DNA of 64,000 bases, taken from assembly GCA_028286865.1 (NCBI GenBank), contig JAQBQU010000017.1:14395-78394 (forward strand), written 5' to 3'. Each line of letters begins with the position of its first letter. Position 1 is the stretch's first letter. Source of the DNA: Candidatus Kaiserbacteria bacterium. GTDB taxonomy: Bacteria > Patescibacteriota > Minisyncoccia > Phycocordibacterales > UBA2100. The notes under the pieces are model-generated. The model ran no database searches and had not been told where the DNA came from. It worked only from the letters and a program-made list of their open reading frames with translations. Below are positions 45,746 through 52,661 of this stretch, piece by piece. A program made the translations under genes and the position numbers.

Positions 45746-46339
45746 ATGGACCACTTCCTTATCTGGTGCGGGGTTCTTGTAGCACCTGTTTTTATCTCCA
45801 TCTTTCTTATAGAGGGATATCTGCGCAAAGGATATCTGCCGCTTCGGCAGCCGGTCAGTGCGCTTGCGATCGGTCCGCGCGGATGGATACAGCGTGCCAA
45901 CTTTTTTATCACCGGTGCTCTGGCCCTTTTGTACGCGTTCAGTCTGCAGGGATGGGGATCGATACTCACGATCATCTTCGGTGCGGGCCTCGTGGGGGCA
46001 GGTGTTTTCGTGACGGATGTCACCGGATCGCCCAAGCAGGATAGCGGCCCGGTGATCAGGAGCAGGGCCGGCCTCCTTCACGATATATTTTCTCTCCCGG
46101 TTTTTATGGCCCTCTTGGTGAACTGCTTCGTGTTCGCGCAGGGCTTTAGTGCGTCGGGCGAAGACGCGTGGACCGTCTATTCAAGACTGTCCGGCATTCT
46201 GCTCGCGGTCTTTTTCGTATTCGCCGGAGTAGGTTTTTCGGGCTCGCCTAAATTCGCGCATATAGGCGGCCTTATGCAGCGCTTGTCTATCTCAATAGGG
46301 TGGATATGGCTTTCGGTGGTGGCACTGCACCTTCTCTAG
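45746..46339 (+). CDS. polytopic membrane protein (197 aa, about 6 TM; DUF998-like)
   Basis: Hydrophobicity pattern and length. GC3-biased. Confidence 0.5.
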   Translation: MDHFLIWCGVLVAPVFISIFLIEGYLRKGYLPLRQPVSALAIGPRGWIQRANFFITGALALLYAFSLQGWGSILTIIFGAGLVGAGVFVTDVTGSPKQDSGPVIRSRAGLLHDIFSLPVFMALLVNCFVFAQGFSASGEDAWTVYSRLSGILLAVFFVFAGVGFSGSPKFAHIGGLMQRLSISIGWIWLSVVALHLL

Positions 46340-46359
46340 GGGGTATATACTTCATCTAT

Positions 46360-46530
46360 ATGAATACAAAGACCACGTATATCGTTATCGGCACTATTAT
46401 TTTTTTTGCAGTTATCACGGTCGCGATGAAGATGTATTCCGATAGGCGGCAGGGGACGGAGAAGCTTTCCGCAGAGCAGGTCGTGGATCTTGAAGTGCAG
46501 GCAGATGTGCAGAACGGAGGAGGTCGTTGA
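46360..46530 (+). CDS. small single-TM protein alpha-1 (56 aa), paralog of 47851..48033
   Basis: MNTKTTYIVIGTIIFFAVITVAMKMYSDRRQGTEKLSAEQVVDLEVQADVQNGGGR. The ATG lies 9 nt after TATACT within the conserved box ATATACTTCAT-NN-ATATGAATACA shared with the paralog. The conserved C-terminus is RQGTE.L.AEQVV.LEVQAD.QN. Confidence 0.55.
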   Translation: MNTKTTYIVIGTIIFFAVITVAMKMYSDRRQGTEKLSAEQVVDLEVQADVQNGGGR

Positions 46531-46586
46531 CCCTCTTCTTCATCGATGGCATAGTTTCGCCAGCTATCTCAAGGGAGGACCTACCG

Positions 46587-46910
46587 ATGGCGTTTTTTTC
46601 GAACGACAGTGAGATGATGCACGGACCGTATCAGGGAATCGCGAAGTCGTTTTTGTGCGTCGTCTTCCTGCTGCTGTTCTACAAGTTCTGCCTCGCAGTC
46701 GGAATATTCCCGAGGACCTTGCCGGTGCCGCCGGTCGCGTACCACTGGTGGGTCATCGACGTTCTGACCTTCTTCTCGGCGGTGTTCTGGCTCCTTCATG
46801 GCGCCAAGACCCACAATCACAACGATGAATGGGAGCAGGCGCTTTTGTTCGGGATCGTTCTGGTCGTTGTCTGTCTGGTCATCACGATCGGTCAGGTCAT
46901 CTTCGGCTGA
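46587..46910 (+). CDS. small membrane protein beta-1 (107 aa), tandem paralog of 46939..47250
   Basis: Strong SD GGGAGGA-N6-ATG with 3 TM segments. Shared motifs with beta-2 are GIFPRTLPVPPVA / GLFPPSSPVPFVA. Confidence 0.55.
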   Translation: MAFFSNDSEMMHGPYQGIAKSFLCVVFLLLFYKFCLAVGIFPRTLPVPPVAYHWWVIDVLTFFSAVFWLLHGAKTHNHNDEWEQALLFGIVLVVVCLVITIGQVIFG

Positions 46911-46938
46911 TCATCACGCACCTCTGGGAGGAGACACC

Positions 46939-47250
46939 ATGGCTATTCGCTTCGCGTATAGCGGGATGACGGAATCGGTCCAGGTGCTTGCGAAACTGCT
47001 CACCGGACTCATCTTCCTTCTTTTGCTCCACAAGCTGTGGATACGCATCGGATTGTTCCCGCCAAGCTCACCGGTGCCGTTCGTCGCGCAACACCTCGGC
47101 TATATCGCCGTATTGTCGTTCTGCGCGACGCTGTGCTGGTTCCATTACGCGCTTCTGACCGACGACGCTCAGTGGGAGGACGGCCGACTGCTCGGCTTCA
47201 TCATGCTGGGTGTCACCGTTCTGCTCACCTATCTCCAGTTCTTTGCCTGA
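46939..47250 (+). CDS. small membrane protein beta-2 (103 aa)
   Basis: Strong SD GGGAGGAGACACC-ATG. It is a paralog of beta-1. A terminator follows. Confidence 0.55.
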   Translation: MAIRFAYSGMTESVQVLAKLLTGLIFLLLLHKLWIRIGLFPPSSPVPFVAQHLGYIAVLSFCATLCWFHYALLTDDAQWEDGRLLGFIMLGVTVLLTYLQFFA

Positions 47251-47788: not shown

Positions 47789-47830
47789 AGCCGCTCGAGA
47801 CCAAAGCCGTCTTGAGCGGCTTTGTGTTTT
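47789..47830 (+). terminator. rho-independent terminator (GCCGCTCGAG-loop-CTTGAGCGGC + TTTGTGTTTT)
   Basis: 10-bp stem plus a U-rich tail. Confidence 0.65.
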
Positions 47831-47850
47831 GCGGCGGCCGGATATACTTC

Positions 47851-48033
47851 ATGAATATGAATACACGAATCGTAGAGATCATTATTGGAGCGGTCATTAT
47901 TATCCTCGCCGGCATCGTTATTTATGTAACCATGCACAACAGGGCAGCGAGCCAGAGGCAGGGGACGGAGCAGCTCACCGCAGAACAAGTGGTCGGTCTC
48001 GAGGTGCAAGCAGATGCTCAGAATAATCAGTAG
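47851..48033 (+). CDS. small single-TM protein alpha-2 (about 58-60 aa)
   Basis: MNMNTRIVEIIIGAVIIILAGIVIYVTMHNRAASQRQGTEQLTAEQVVGLEVQADAQNNQ, with the same conserved upstream box as alpha-1. Confidence 0.55.
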   Translation: MNMNTRIVEIIIGAVIIILAGIVIYVTMHNRAASQRQGTEQLTAEQVVGLEVQADAQNNQ

Positions 48034-48142
48034 AAGAATCGTTCAAAGACGAAGTCGATCGGTGTGGGTTTGACAGGGTAGGGCAGGAGGTAGATGCTAG
48101 CCAGTAGTCCGCATTCAGCGGTGATATTTGGAGGGACAACAG

Positions 48143-48723: not shown

Positions 48724-49170
48724 ATGACAGAGAAAATGCTTTTGGCGCCATCGGAGCCGACCGAGGCATCGTTCTGCGCCCTGGTGAAGACGGCGATAGA
48801 GTCCCGGCGCACTCACTATTATAGAATTCGCGATGAGGCGCGTATCGGATCAGCGTTTCTGTTTTCGGTGTGGCATTACGCAAAACTTCCCGAGAATAAA
48901 AGTGGAAGAAACAATCTTGCGAATGTCGTCCGCCTCTGCGATCATCTCGATCTCGACCTGAAAGCCTGCCTCGCCGCATGCAAGATCAAGGGTGATCTAT
49001 TCCACATCGACAAGGCGCGTGCGACATTGCTCGAGCTTTCTATCCCAGATCTCGAATTTGTCATTCATCAGATGAAGTCCGACAAAGCGACAAAGATCGG
49101 CATTAACCGTATTCGCCAGTATCTGCAGTACCGTCGTTCCGTAGAAGAGGAGAAAAAGGAGTCAGGCTAA
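48724..49170 (+). CDS. hypothetical cytoplasmic protein (148 aa)
   Basis: SD AAGAAAGGGACGAACTC-ATG. No motif recognised. Confidence 0.5.
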   Translation: MTEKMLLAPSEPTEASFCALVKTAIESRRTHYYRIRDEARIGSAFLFSVWHYAKLPENKSGRNNLANVVRLCDHLDLDLKACLAACKIKGDLFHIDKARATLLELSIPDLEFVIHQMKSDKATKIGINRIRQYLQYRRSVEEEKKESG

Positions 49171-49226
49171 CGCGCCTGGCTCTTTCTATTTGTGGCTTTT
49201 GGAAGAGGAACTGATACGATTTTGAT

Positions 49227-49433
49227 ATGGCTCTGGCAAAAAAGGTAATCAAGAAAAAGAAGAGCGAGATCGTCAGGGGATTTACGATCAAGTATCACGC
49301 CAATGGCACGACCGTGTGGTCTAAGGGCAAAATGAAAGGCGGGAAGCCAAACGGCTATTGGGAATGGTATCGCCTCGACGGCACCCTCAAGCGCTCGGGC
49401 TTCTTCAAGGATGGGGTGACAGTAGGCAAGTAG
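49227..49433 (+). CDS. MORN-variant repeat (YwqK-like) small protein (68 aa)
   Basis: GYWEWYRLDGTLKRSGFFKDG matches the MORN_2 repeat (G.W..Y..nG.l...G.y.nG). Confidence 0.5.
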   Translation: MALAKKVIKKKKSEIVRGFTIKYHANGTTVWSKGKMKGGKPNGYWEWYRLDGTLKRSGFFKDGVTVGK

Positions 49434-49518
49434 ACCACGTATGACTCAAAAGGGAAGGTCCATAAAGTCACAGAAAACAAGTAGTTTGACAGGGAATAGG
49501 GAGAGGTAGATGCTAGCG

Positions 49519-49697
49519 GCATGATTCCGGTAATAGAGTTCATATTGAACTGGGTATTTATGCCTATTTTCTATATAGGATATGCGGCCTGGAAGGCCGT
49601 CACTCACGTTCTTAGACATCCGCTTGTTGTCGCTGTCGCAGGTCTTGTAATAGGGACGATCATTCTAAACGCCCTTGGTTACATTGAATTTAAATAG
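49519..49697 (+). CDS. small membrane protein (58 aa), not in ORF track
   Basis: MIPVIEFILNWVFMPIFYIGYAAWKAVTHVLRHPLVVAVAGLVIGTIILNALGYIEFK. The ATG directly follows the second copy of the conserved TTGACA motif (a leaderless-type start). GC is about 44%. Confidence 0.4.
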
Positions 49698-49726
49698 CTT
49701 TTGGGAGGGGAATTGGTAGGATTTGG

Positions 49727-50845
49727 GTGCATGGCGGAGTCAATATGAAAGCCTACTTTCAGACAGAGAAGTACAAGCGTTATTGCTTTGCAATTGCTCG
49801 CAGAGCACGCAAAAGAAGAAGGCAGCGAAAAGTATCCATCCGTATTCTACGGCAAGTTCTACTTGGGAAAGATACTAACTCTGCAAGTCGCATAAGGGAT
49901 TTTGCCGACTACAAGCTGCATGTAGTAGCTCCAGTTGATTGTTGTTTTTTAACTAACATTGAAGAAGTCACAACATTTATAAACAAGCTGGAAGAGCATA
50001 GGGCAGCACGATCAAGAGTATTCGTGGTTCTCAAGAAGGTCGAAAAGTTTGATTATGCAGCAATATCGGTGCTACTTTCAGTCATGTCCACTTTTAAGTT
50101 GGAGCGGACGGGATTTAATGGCGATTTTCCAGCGAATCGTGAGGCAAGAAAGCTGATTGTGGAGTCTGGTTTCTTCGACCATATAAATCGAAAACGTTCC
50201 GAAAAGGAGGAAGATTTGGGATATATAAGAGGTAAAGACAATCAAATATTCACTCACCTAAACACCAATGTTGTTCCGGAACTTGGGTTACCTATTCTTG
50301 AGCAGGCTTCAACTACTGTTTGCGGTGAAAAAAAGGCCAATGGGGGTCTTCACAGTGTACTGATGGAACTAATGCAAAATACTAACAACCATGCCGCTTC
50401 GGGCATAAAAGGGGAGAAGCATTGGTGGCTGTCTGTAAATCACAATGCCGTAAATAAACTTGTCAGTTTCTCATTCATAGATCACGGAGTAGGAGTATTA
50501 ACGAGCCTAGATAGAAAGCCTCCTTCCAGTAGGTGGCACAGAGCTGTACAAAATGCTGCAAAAACTTTTGGCATAGAAAGTAATGAAAACTTCATAGAAG
50601 CGCTTTTGTCGGGAAAAATCCATCAGACCGTCACAAAAAAGTCCTATCGAGGCAAGGGATTGCCAAATATCAAGCGAATGCTAGATTTCAATAAGATTGG
50701 TAACTTACAGATAATTACCAATAATGTCTACGCAAATGTGGCCAAGAAGGAATATAGGCTGCTAAATCAGGATTTTAAAGGAACCTTCTTCTACTGGGAG
50801 CTTTCCTCTGAAAATGAATTTAAACCATGGACAATAATCTCATAA
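49727..50845 (+). CDS. STAS-like + GHKL (histidine-kinase/anti-sigma-kinase-like) ATPase protein, low-GC
   Basis: Bergerat-fold motifs: N-box LMELMQNTNNHA, G1 IDHGVGV, G2 YRGKGLPNIKRML. N-terminal region is basic (RRARKRRRQRK) followed by a STAS-like segment (VFVVLKKVEKFDYAAISVLLSVM...ARKLIVESGFFDHI). GC is about 40%. An alternative ATG start is at 49745. Confidence 0.65.
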   Translation: MHGGVNMKAYFQTEKYKRYCFAIARRARKRRRQRKVSIRILRQVLLGKDTNSASRIRDFADYKLHVVAPVDCCFLTNIEEVTTFINKLEEHRAARSRVFVVLKKVEKFDYAAISVLLSVMSTFKLERTGFNGDFPANREARKLIVESGFFDHINRKRSEKEEDLGYIRGKDNQIFTHLNTNVVPELGLPILEQASTTVCGEKKANGGLHSVLMELMQNTNNHAASGIKGEKHWWLSVNHNAVNKLVSFSFIDHGVGVLTSLDRKPPSSRWHRAVQNAAKTFGIESNENFIEALLSGKIHQTVTKKSYRGKGLPNIKRMLDFNKIGNLQIITNNVYANVAKKEYRLLNQDFKGTFFYWELSSENEFKPWTIIS

Positions 50846-51162
50846 CACTAGCTACGGATTTCTCTATAACGCCAGGTCCTCGATCTATAGTCGAGGGCCC
50901 GTTTTCAGGTGAAAAGTTTAGAGATGAAATTCTCGCGCCTAGATTTTTAGCTGCTCTCGAAAATGGCGGTACCCTTACAGTTAATTTGGATGGTGCGGTT
51001 GGATATGGGACAAGCTTTCTTGAGGAAGCTTTCGGTGGACTCGCGAGACTCTATGGCATCCAGGAGGTTAAGCAAACTATCCGAATAATTTCTAACGAGG
51101 AACCGTATCTAAAGGATGACGTCATGCAATATATAGACGAAGCAAATGACCAAGTTAAATAA
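50827..51162 (+). CDS. DUF4325/STAS-like domain protein (111 aa)
   Basis: TVNLDGAVGYGTSFLEEAFGGLARLYG matches the DUF4325 core (..DF.gV....sSF.dE.fG.L....G). It overlaps the upstream gene by 19 nt. Confidence 0.6.
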   Translation: MDNNLITLATDFSITPGPRSIVEGPFSGEKFRDEILAPRFLAALENGGTLTVNLDGAVGYGTSFLEEAFGGLARLYGIQEVKQTIRIISNEEPYLKDDVMQYIDEANDQVK

Positions 51163-51772
51163 AACTTACTTTCCGATTGCACTTATAATCTTGCTCGTCG
51201 GGACACTTCTTGGTTTTTGTGCCTACGCGTATTCTGAAAATTACTTATTTATCGATTATCAAAAAGGGTTGCAATTGTCACTCGATCCAATCGAGATTTT
51301 TTCTATAGCGATCAATATATTGCTCGCTGTATGGATACTGCGAAAATTGAGTCGGGACGATGATAGTGAAAAGGTTGAGCGTGATTTGATAATCCGCTAC
51401 TTCGAAGACTTCGATAAAGACTTAATGCGGGCGGTAAGAAAGTCTTCTCAAAATGGTGTTAAGTATGCGTTTGTCGTAGCTGCTCTCAAGGAGCTGAGAA
51501 TTCGTCTGTTAAGACTTTTATCTCTTGCGATTGAGCAGGGATTTATAACTAATGATTCTGTATGTACGATAGCGCTCCCGGAGCACTTAAAAGGCCTTAG
51601 AAAGCTTTTGACTACGACTCCGCGAAAAGGGGCCGTAGAGGATGGGATCAGAGTTGAGGAAGGAAAGCTGTATTTTTCGGATGAGCATATAAATAAAATA
51701 AATGCAGCAATGTTCGAGACAAACAATGGAGTTTTCCGACTTCTGGTCGAAGTTACGCGTGCTCGACGGTAG
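51146..51772 (+). CDS. 2-TM membrane protein with cytoplasmic domain (208 aa), third gene of the low-GC cassette
   Basis: Overlaps the upstream gene by 17 nt. Two N-terminal TM helices then a charged helical domain. About 38% GC. Confidence 0.55.
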   Translation: MTKLNKTYFPIALIILLVGTLLGFCAYAYSENYLFIDYQKGLQLSLDPIEIFSIAINILLAVWILRKLSRDDDSEKVERDLIIRYFEDFDKDLMRAVRKSSQNGVKYAFVVAALKELRIRLLRLLSLAIEQGFITNDSVCTIALPEHLKGLRKLLTTTPRKGAVEDGIRVEEGKLYFSDEHINKINAAMFETNNGVFRLLVEVTRARR

Positions 51773-52398
51773 CATTCAATCTTTTTTAATCCTATTAATC
51801 AGATTGGGTCAACGCGGACCATTGATACGGTCCGCAGATATAAGCCAAAAAAGGGGAGAGTAAGTCCCCTGAATATTGTAATGAATTTCCTTCCGCATAA
51901 AAAATTTAGCCGCCAGAAAATAAAGAAATCCTACGTCGCACACGCATTCAACAACACGGTGCCTTTAACGAATCTCATCTCCAATCAGTATCCACCTAGA
52001 GGGAAGAGGGCTTTGTTATTTACTTACAGCGTCGCACAATATATCTTTTGCGACACGTAGGCCCAGGCAATAAGGCCGGAATGGCTTGAGCCGGACTTTG
52101 TATCGAATTGGATTCCGCATGTATGTCTCAGTCCGTTTAAATCCCGCTCACACTCCCCTCTAGATCTCTATAAATATATTCTATAAATATATTCTGTCCT
52201 GGATCCCCTGATACTGATATCAACTTTTACTCAAAAAAAGGTCTTTTTGCCAAACCGCCGTGTCCCCCGTTTTTCCGAAATTTCCGGGGGACTCGGATGC
52301 CCGATAATTGCCATTTATATATTTCTGAATAAAACGACTCATTTAAATCGCTCAGGAGCTTTGGCAACGCGTTCGAGTCGATACTTGGTACGGCTCGT

Positions 52399-52427
52399 TT
52401 AAAGAAAAAGACCCGTTGTCCGGGTCG
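52399..52427 (-). terminator. rho-independent terminator for minus strand (GACCCG-GACAA-CGGGTC + TTTTTCTTT)
   Basis: Lies immediately downstream of the DUF1059 gene stop on the minus strand. Confidence 0.6.
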
Positions 52428-52445
52428 TTTGTCTTTTCGGAGCAT

Positions 52446-52661
52446 TTATTCGTCCTCGAGCGAATCAAACTTCACTTTGAACTCGCTCATCCACTTATCG
52501 TTCACGTCTTTCGGATTGTTCATAATATTCTTCGCTTGCTCCGGATGCGCTTCCTGAAGATGCTTCCAGCCGGTGTCGATCATGCCTTCGGCCGTCGGTG
52601 CCATAAGAACGACCTTACAATCTGCCGGTCCGCCCATGTTCGAACAAAGTATCTGCTTCAT
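52446..52661 (-). CDS. DUF1059-family small metal-binding protein
   Basis: MKQILCSNMGGPADCKVVLMAPTAEGMIDTGWKHLQEAHPE matches the DUF1059 pattern (MK.F.C.D.G.DC.f.a.a.teeEl......Ha.e.H). Confidence 0.6.
   Translation of the reverse strand: MKQILCSNMGGPADCKVVLMAPTAEGMIDTGWKHLQEAHPEQAKNIMNNPKDVNDKWMSEFKVKFDSLEDE

Follow-up and report, generated by a model that had tools for sequence, protein, structure and literature searches.

The region analysed here, hereafter the window, is a stretch of 64,000 nucleotides (nt) from a Candidatus Kaiserbacteria contig (JAQBQU010000017.1, assembly GCA_028286865.1, positions 14,395 to 78,394 of the forward strand), which carries on its + strand a cassette of three consecutive open reading frames (ORFs), the neighbouring frames overlapping by exactly 19 nt and 17 nt. 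Gene 1 encodes a protein in which a strongly basic tail at the N-terminus precedes a STAS domain and a GHKL (Bergerat-fold) domain similar to the serine kinases of the SpoIIAB/RsbW type, gene 2 encodes a single-domain STAS-like protein of the DUF4325 family, and gene 3 encodes a membrane protein with two transmembrane (TM) helices and a predicted cytoplasmic domain. With its membrane protein, the cassette is a hitherto undescribed variant of two stress and anti-phage switches, CapK/CapS and VapKSC, whose kinases contain STAS and GHKL domains and have separate STAS proteins as substrates or proposed substrates (Chambers et al., EMBO J 2026, PMC13373217). The coordinates of the features are collected in Table 1.

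The same overlaps and the same make-up of the three proteins had been proposed in an initial annotation of this DNA. The overlaps are confirmed by the ORF coordinates, the organization of gene 1 (basic tail, STAS, RsbW/SpoIIAB-type GHKL) by fold matches, invariant boxes and the charge of the tail, the assignment of gene 2 to DUF4325 by its Pfam match, and the two-TM architecture of gene 3 with a cytoplasmic domain by the hydrophobic helices, the charge distribution and the predicted structure. The initial annotation also put the cassette at about 40% guanine plus cytosine (GC) within a chromosome of 58-60% GC; the former value agrees well with the measured 41.6%, and the latter is a little high, the remainder of the window having 55.0%. 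The mechanical frame of gene 1 opens with the GTG codon at 49727, from which its residues are numbered throughout, with the ATG codon at 49745 as residue 7. This ATG is likely to be the true start, since a GGAG motif is found 5 nt upstream of it, the homologues begin there, and the public gene call comprises 366 amino acids (aa).

A word-indexed protein search returned more than 250 homologues of gene 1, and the profile search identified 3061, 2018 and 884 representatives of 50%-identity clusters at E<=1e-3, E<=1e-10 and E<=1e-30, respectively; because a profile of gene 1 finds these 3061 representatives, the three ORFs are to be regarded as real genes and not as chance frames. Gene 1 also matches the phage protein family phrog_3364 (E 2.8e-36). 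At the level of the fold, its N-terminal part corresponds to a STAS domain (best matches: RsbV/SLC26 STAS) and its C-terminal part to the Bergerat alpha/beta sandwich, with SpoIIAB, RsbW and also UsfX as the best matches. All elements of the GHKL active site, i.e. E214 and N218, D252xGxG256, R308GKGLP313 and G352TF, are invariant and follow one another in the canonical GHKL order in 32 aligned homologues. The basic tail, which forms a long helix (residues 14-45) in the AF2 (AlphaFold2) model, comprises at least 40 aa in 75 of 78 loci, with a median net charge of +15.5, and is thus kept as a property and not as a sequence. The support from hidden Markov models (HMMs), which had been proposed as a check of the initial annotation, is mixed: DUF4325 scores above its cut-off in gene 2, and GHKL and STAS are recognized in gene 1 at the fold level, but the corresponding Pfam models remain sub-threshold for gene 1 (among the HATPase_c-type models only HATPase_c_5 appears, with E 0.023 and 15 bits vs the 22-bit cut-off; STAS_2 has E 0.031). 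The HATPase_c-type models are below cut-off also for VapK and CapK. The NCBIfam scan of gene 1 gave nothing, and the searches of the PDB sequences with the gene 1 and gene 2 profiles gave nothing meaningful. The other matches reported by Pfam, NCBIfam and PADLOC for genes 1 and 3, among them FtsX, MscL and ETF-beta, were sub-threshold or spurious and were disregarded. The invariance of the catalytic motifs, together with analogy, strongly suggests that gene 1 is catalytically competent, and it is predicted to act as a serine kinase on a STAS partner.

Gene 2 was confidently assigned to DUF4325 (Pfam PF14213, E 1.6e-12, 47.4 bits vs the 23-bit gathering cut-off), and the public gene calls of its homologues bear the same match. 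In the literature search the name of this family turned up in three publications only. The Pfam scan of gene 2 shows DUF4325 only, with no winged helix-turn-helix (wHTH) or other DNA-binding domain. Conservation within the gene 2 family is strong. Ser63, located within the motif LDGxxGYGTS63FLEExFGGLxR, is invariant in 80 of 80 homologues and remains so after the addition of distant relatives from Leptospira and Helicobacter to the alignment. It aligns with S48 of VapS and S54 of CapS, two residues for which the effects of phosphorylation or of a phosphomimetic substitution have been demonstrated experimentally (PMC13373217). Both the invariance and this analogy strongly suggest that Ser63 is the phospho-acceptor. 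As a separate observation, gene 2 matches only the last ~100 of the 441 positions of phrog_5816 (E 2.2e-9), which points to the existence, in some phages, of a larger protein whose C-terminal domain is DUF4325 and which may be a fusion of the kinase with its substrate.

In gene 3, the distribution of charges, with positive residues concentrated ahead of TM1 and behind TM2, indicates according to the positive-inside rule that the C-terminal four-helix bundle is cytoplasmic and therefore accessible to gene 2. Both N-terminal hydrophobic helices score at least 1.6 in 65 of 77 gene 3 homologues. No PIN domain is detected in gene 3 by Pfam. The family evolves fast, and Thr156, at the end of a helix of the bundle, is its sole invariant residue; it could be a second phosphorylation site or a contact site.

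Table 1. Features of the three-gene cassette and of the islet that contains it (positions refer to the window; gene 1 residues are counted from GTG 49727)
Feature	Position	Strand	Basis or description
Gene 1, mechanical ORF	49727-50845	+	372 aa from GTG
Gene 1, likely coding sequence	49745..50845	+	366 aa from ATG 49745; STAS-GHKL serine-kinase-like protein
Gene 1, N-terminal basic helical tail	49745..49912	+	56 aa, net charge +14
Gene 1, STAS domain	49913..50191	+	about aa 63-155; C-terminal SGFF linker motif conserved, common with CapK (LGFFDH)
Gene 1, GHKL (Bergerat-fold) kinase domain	50234..50842	+	N, G1, G2 and G3 boxes
Gene 1, N box (ExxxN)	E214/N218; codon of N218 at 50378-50380	+	motif
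Gene 1, G1 box (DxGxG)	D252HGVG256, 50480-50494	+	motif
Gene 1, G2 box/ATP lid	R308GKGLP313, 50648-50665	+	motif (GxxGxG-like)
Gene 1, G3 box (GT)	G352TF, 50780-50788	+	motif
Gene 2	50827-51162	+	111 aa; single-domain STAS-like protein (DUF4325)
Gene 2, predicted phospho-acceptor Ser63	codon 51013-51015	+	invariance; alignment with VapS S48 and CapS S54
Gene 3	51146-51772	+	208 aa; membrane protein
Gene 3, TM1	aa 9-27, 51170-51226	+	hydrophobic helix
Gene 3, TM2	aa 47-65, 51284-51340	+	hydrophobic helix
Gene 3, cytoplasmic four-helix bundle with beta-hairpin	aa 74-205, 51365-51760	+	predicted structure
Gene 3, Thr156	codon 51611-51613	+	invariant, LxTxTP motif
Low-GC islet with the cassette	48750..52500 (about)	.	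GC 0.41-0.50, composition profile

The conservation of the triad, another of the checks proposed at the outset, was analyzed in 80 genome loci with a gene 1 relative, 79 of which are complete, i.e. not cut by a contig end. They originate from Patescibacteria, Bacteroidota, Gammaproteobacteria, Burkholderiales, Verrucomicrobiota, Acidobacteriota, Nitrospirota, Fibrobacterota, Cloacimonadota, Omnitrophota and a Vallitalea. Sphingobacterium corticibacter, Marivirga salinae and Bizionia arctica are among the cultivable species with an orthologue. The triad is conserved without exception: in all 79 complete loci gene 2 lies directly downstream of gene 1 and is followed by an ORF of ~200 aa, which usually overlaps gene 2 and which, after one HMM iteration, is a homologue of gene 3 in 79/79 cases (weakest E 1e-30). 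Complete triads are present also in 5 of 5 complete viral contigs from IMG/VR. The overlapping reading frames suggest translational coupling. The analysis of the flanks did not reveal any conserved fourth gene, and nothing beyond gene 3 is kept downstream. More distant relatives extend the picture. A complete triad resides on the Leptospira interrogans plasmid p4 (locus L082, 3878-5706), beside a MNT/HepT toxin-antitoxin pair and ParB; its third gene encodes a small protein with one N-terminal TM helix, which still matches the gene 3 HMM. In a Helicobacter prophage (BK070146.1, locus L081, 4064-5638) a kinase relative and a DUF4325 gene are accompanied by a one-TM protein without a match to the gene 3 HMM, and a published table of a Francisella prophage has consecutive entries for a hypothetical protein of 293 aa, a DUF4325 protein and a TM protein (PMC7924643).

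The cassette is horizontally mobile, and its low GC reflects the horizontal acquisition that the initial annotation had supposed: its GC content is more than 3 points below that of the flanks in 63 of 73 loci (mean difference -9.3 points), it is spread patchily over more than 8 phyla, and its flanks are unrelated between loci, with no syntenic core position. The initial interpretation is therefore essentially right, none of the observations named at the outset as speaking against it having been made: GHKL and STAS are supported at the level of the fold, the triad is kept together, and the low GC does not belong to a syntenic core. The largest clusters of flanking genes comprise a HsdM-like methylase (7 loci), a serine recombinase (5 loci), and AbiEi, AbiEii, HsdS and HsdR (3 loci each). 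When the 134 nearest neighbours were scanned with Pfam (viewed as the 25 most frequent families) and PADLOC, restriction-modification (R-M), MADS, PbeA, AbiE and integrase genes were found mixed with transporters and housekeeping genes, including MutS, RtcB and PEPCK. The defence-island context that had been anticipated holds in part only, as R-M, AbiE or recombinase genes adjoin the cassette in a minority of loci, and many copies, including the one in this window, are found among ordinary genes.

Unlike the classical switches SpoIIAB/SpoIIAA and RsbW/RsbV, the cassette has a kinase (gene 1) fused to a STAS domain of its own and, as third partner, a membrane protein. Neither a sigma factor nor a PP2C phosphatase is present within it, in the shared clusters of flanking genes, or in the top 25 Pfam families of the 134 nearest neighbours. 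In the Sia system of Pseudomonas aeruginosa (SiaB/SiaC, where SiaC is a STAS-like substrate of the DUF1987 family) the signal is transmitted to a diguanylate cyclase, and a PP2C phosphatase is included; the cassette has neither the cyclase nor the phosphatase. PADLOC (v2.0.0) reported for gene 1 a weak match of residues 299-366 (window 50621-50824) to the PDC-M65A model (E 8.7e-5), in which the last ~70 residues of the protein occupy the equivalent positions of the 398-position model. This model is matched by only 2 of 32 members of the gene 1 family and by neither VapK nor CapK, and PADLOC found no match for genes 2 and 3. We found no publication on PDC-M65, and none joining partner switching with anti-phage defence. 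The statement of the initial annotation that the cassette corresponds to no named defence system stands in so far as PADLOC is concerned; it has to be qualified by the two closely analogous systems published in 2026 (PMC13373217).

In the first of these, CapK/CapS (Controller of associated pathways, kinase and STAS), the kinase CapK (HTH-STAS-GHKL) is switched on by single-stranded DNA (ssDNA) and phosphorylates CapS (STAS-wHTH) on S54, upon which the adjacent immune operons are de-repressed (PMC13373217). In the second, VapKSC, the STAS-GHKL protein VapK has been proposed to phosphorylate S48 of VapS, a STAS protein with a short C-terminal helix. VapS binds the PIN toxin VapC and inhibits it; in its S48E variant, a phosphomimetic one, both VapC binding and rescue are lost, and the operon confers ~2 logs of protection against phage Bas42 (PMC13373217). 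Neither a membrane-protein variant nor DUF4325 is mentioned by Chambers et al. (PMC13373217). The sequences of CapK, CapS, VapS and VapK were taken from the source data of that article, and the transcribed sequences were checked against the named residues W68, N218, K237 and K239 of CapK and F54 of VapK. VapS turned out to match the DUF4325 model (E 2.7e-17), i.e. it belongs to the same family as gene 2. Both CapK (hhalign E 5.5e-4, positions 132-317 vs 126-315; BLASTP E 0.001) and VapK (hhalign E 1.8e-4) can be aligned collinearly with the profile of gene 1, the SGFFDH/LGFFDH linker and all catalytic motifs being in register.

With VapKSC the cassette shares the three-gene operon in the order kinase, small STAS protein and effector, a first-encoded kinase composed of STAS plus GHKL, a small protein consisting of a single DUF4325 domain, in which helix 2 begins with an invariant Ser and the C-terminus forms a short helix, and the mobility and spread across diverse bacteria. 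It differs in the third gene, which in VapKSC encodes the PIN nuclease VapC and here a two-TM protein with a four-helix bundle, in the ~56-aa basic tail of gene 1 (net charge about +14), which VapK does not have, and perhaps in the ssDNA-stacking aromatic F54 of VapK, which appears not to be conserved in the gene 1 family, the alignment being uncertain in that region. With CapK, gene 1 has in common an N-terminal extension followed by STAS and GHKL, nearly the same length (368 aa in CapK vs 366-372), the GFFDH linker and the catalytic Asn, which is N218 in both numberings; a separate STAS substrate with a conserved Ser is likewise common to both systems. In contrast, the N-terminal extension is a HTH in CapK and a basic helix in gene 1, CapS is a transcriptional repressor with a wHTH (detected as HTH_24 in the same scan), whereas gene 2 contains only DUF4325, and CapKS is located upstream of CBASS, Bub or Thoeris operons, while the sole conserved downstream gene of the cassette is gene 3. 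No immune operon of the CBASS, Bub or Thoeris type is found in the window. Judging from these comparisons, the cassette falls outside VapKSC and CapKS as they are defined, and the predicted kinase-substrate core is common to all three.

In our opinion there is an even chance that the three genes make up a horizontally mobile phospho-switch of the CapK/VapK type, self-contained and built of three components, the third of which is a membrane protein. According to this proposal, the STAS domain and the strongly basic tail of gene 1 would form its regulatory or sensor part, and gene 2 would be its dedicated substrate, phosphorylated on Ser63. Unphosphorylated gene 2 would bind the cytoplasmic four-helix bundle of gene 3, a two-pass inner-membrane protein that serves as the output, and keep it inactive. 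By analogy with VapKSC, a stress or infection signal would activate the kinase; speculatively, this signal might be a nucleic acid to which the basic tail and the groove between STAS and GHKL bind, the tail being a plausible, though speculative, sensor of nucleic acids. Phosphorylation of Ser63 would make gene 2 let go of gene 3, which might then perturb the membrane and cause growth arrest or abortive infection. A defence or toxin function of the cassette, as suggested by the initial annotation, is inferred. A more specific version, namely a widespread, as yet unnamed abortive-infection or toxin system with a nucleic-acid-sensing tail, a STAS antitoxin controlled by phosphorylation, and a released two-pass membrane toxin of a new type with a four-helix-bundle gate, is possible but should be taken as tentative, its chances being somewhat below even.

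Several points weigh against the proposal. The hhalign probability of gene 1 against the single sequences of CapK and VapK is only 30-49%, which is the range of remote homology, Pfam and PDB sequence searches of gene 1 give nothing significant, and the HMM of the gene 2 family does not detect VapS or CapS directly. In the gene 1 family, the column that corresponds to the ssDNA-stacking aromatic (W68 in CapK, F54 in VapK) shows no conserved aromatic residue in an alignment that is uncertain there, so the trigger may differ from that of CapK and VapK. The predicted model of gene 3 is of moderate confidence (predicted local distance difference test, pLDDT, 68), being built from 3 sequences because the word-indexed search returned only gene 3 itself and the profile two relatives; its fold matches are generic, and no recognizable toxin or pore domain is found in gene 3. 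The only PADLOC match is weak and partial, and many loci, including this window and the P0055 loci, are surrounded by ordinary genes and not by defence islands.

As the main alternative, the roles of the three proteins might be distributed as in a classical partner switch (RsbW/RsbV/sigma-B), in which gene 1 would sequester the bundle of gene 3, unphosphorylated gene 2 would compete for the kinase and thereby free gene 3, and the trigger would be a fall in ATP/ADP during infection or starvation and not a ligand. The anti-sigma factors SpoIIAB, RsbW and UsfX, which are the best structural matches of the kinase domain, bind two alternative partners, and the order kinase, STAS protein and third partner with overlapping frames would fit a three-way complex. 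However, in VapKSC, the closest characterized relative, the effector is bound and inhibited by the STAS protein and not by the kinase, and is set free by phosphomimetic VapS (PMC13373217). The phosphatase PP2C, which resets the classical switches, is missing from the frequent neighbour families and shared flank clusters described above, and the extra fused STAS domain is foreign to RsbW and SpoIIAB; such a switch appears rather unlikely. About equally doubtful is a role unrelated to immunity, be it a toxin-antitoxin-like addiction cassette that stabilizes mobile DNA or a unit of general stress signalling that controls some function of the membrane, for instance a channel or the homeostasis of the envelope. 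It would agree with the many solitary insertions among ordinary chromosomal genes, with MutS, RtcB, PEPCK and transporters as immediate neighbours, and with the toxin-antitoxin pair and ParB next to the distant Leptospira plasmid copy, and the boundary between immunity and stress response has been called blurred by the authors of the CapK/VapK study themselves (PMC13373217). The strong signature of horizontal transfer and the patchy spread over more than 8 phyla, the prophage-like contigs that carry the cassette, and the R-M, AbiE and MADS genes that adjoin it in some loci are, on the other hand, typical of defence genes; besides, an addiction role and a defence role are mutually compatible.

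Two further explanations fare much worse. A pair of transcriptional regulators of the CapK/CapS type, controlling an adjacent operon, would be consistent with the length, the domain order and the collinear alignment that gene 1 shares with CapK, but gene 2, with 111 aa and DUF4325 only, has no wHTH or other DNA-binding domain, the tail of gene 1 is not a HTH, and nothing beyond gene 3 is conserved downstream. This reading is very improbable, and we reject it because gene 2 lacks a DNA-binding domain, i.e. because the domain content contradicts it. As for the idea that the genes came together by chance, or are decaying leftovers of unrelated genes within an AT-rich insertion, its only argument is that genes 1 and 3 have no Pfam families; the probability is negligible, the idea being refuted by the co-conservation of three ordered, intact and overlapping genes in 79/79 genome loci and 5/5 viral contigs and by the invariance of the catalytic motifs and Ser63. 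The switch of the CapK/VapK type with a membrane-bound output thus remains the preferred interpretation.

In the window, the low-GC islet around the cassette also holds three small ORFs upstream of it. Downstream, the low-GC tract continues for ~700 nt past the stop codon of gene 3 (51773-52500); it contains no ORF with homologues, gives no match in Rfam, and might be left over from the transferred DNA. No tRNA gene and no convincing flanking or att-like repeats were found around the islet in the window, the Rfam scan of the islet gave no match, and no integrase is present among the window ORFs scanned or the public gene calls around the islet. The ORFs that neighbour the cassette in the window have no homologue at any other related locus. 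A 34-nt direct repeat (82% identical) occurs at 48068-48101 and 49484-49517; its second copy ends 3 nt before the ATG codon of a 58-aa membrane ORF (49521-49697) just upstream of the cassette, and the repeat may be a shared 5' leader or a promoter element. Upstream of the islet there are two paralogous single-TM ORFs (46300-46530, 76 aa, and 47812-48033, 73 aa) with near-identical C-terminal tails (…QGTE.L.AEQVV.LEVQAD.QN), the former of which is followed by two larger multi-TM ORFs (46527-46910 and 46798-47250), all together making up a cluster of membrane-protein genes.

With the publication of CapK/CapS and VapKSC in 2026, the kinase/STAS logic in immunity is no longer new (PMC13373217), and a version with a membrane effector will seem to the specialist plausible rather than shocking. 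The switch composed of a GHKL kinase and a STAS substrate was tied to bacterial immunity only then, its output being a transcriptional repressor in one case and a PIN toxin in the other; the cassette would add a third, membrane-targeted one. It would likewise establish a large family absent from database annotation, with at least 884 50%-identity clusters (E<=1e-30), neither the kinase nor the membrane protein having a Pfam family, and with a range that includes Bacteroidota, Patescibacteria, Proteobacteria, Verrucomicrobiota, Acidobacteriota, prophage-like contigs and a plasmid. Being simple and of three genes only, the cassette lends itself to asking how a membrane protein can be gated through the phosphorylation of a STAS protein, and whether the basic tail, which takes the place of the HTH, reads another signal than CapK and VapK do. 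If the abortive-infection or toxin version is true, the cassette would represent a phospho-gated membrane effector, among the few dedicated immune modules in the Candidate Phyla Radiation (CPR)/Patescibacteria.

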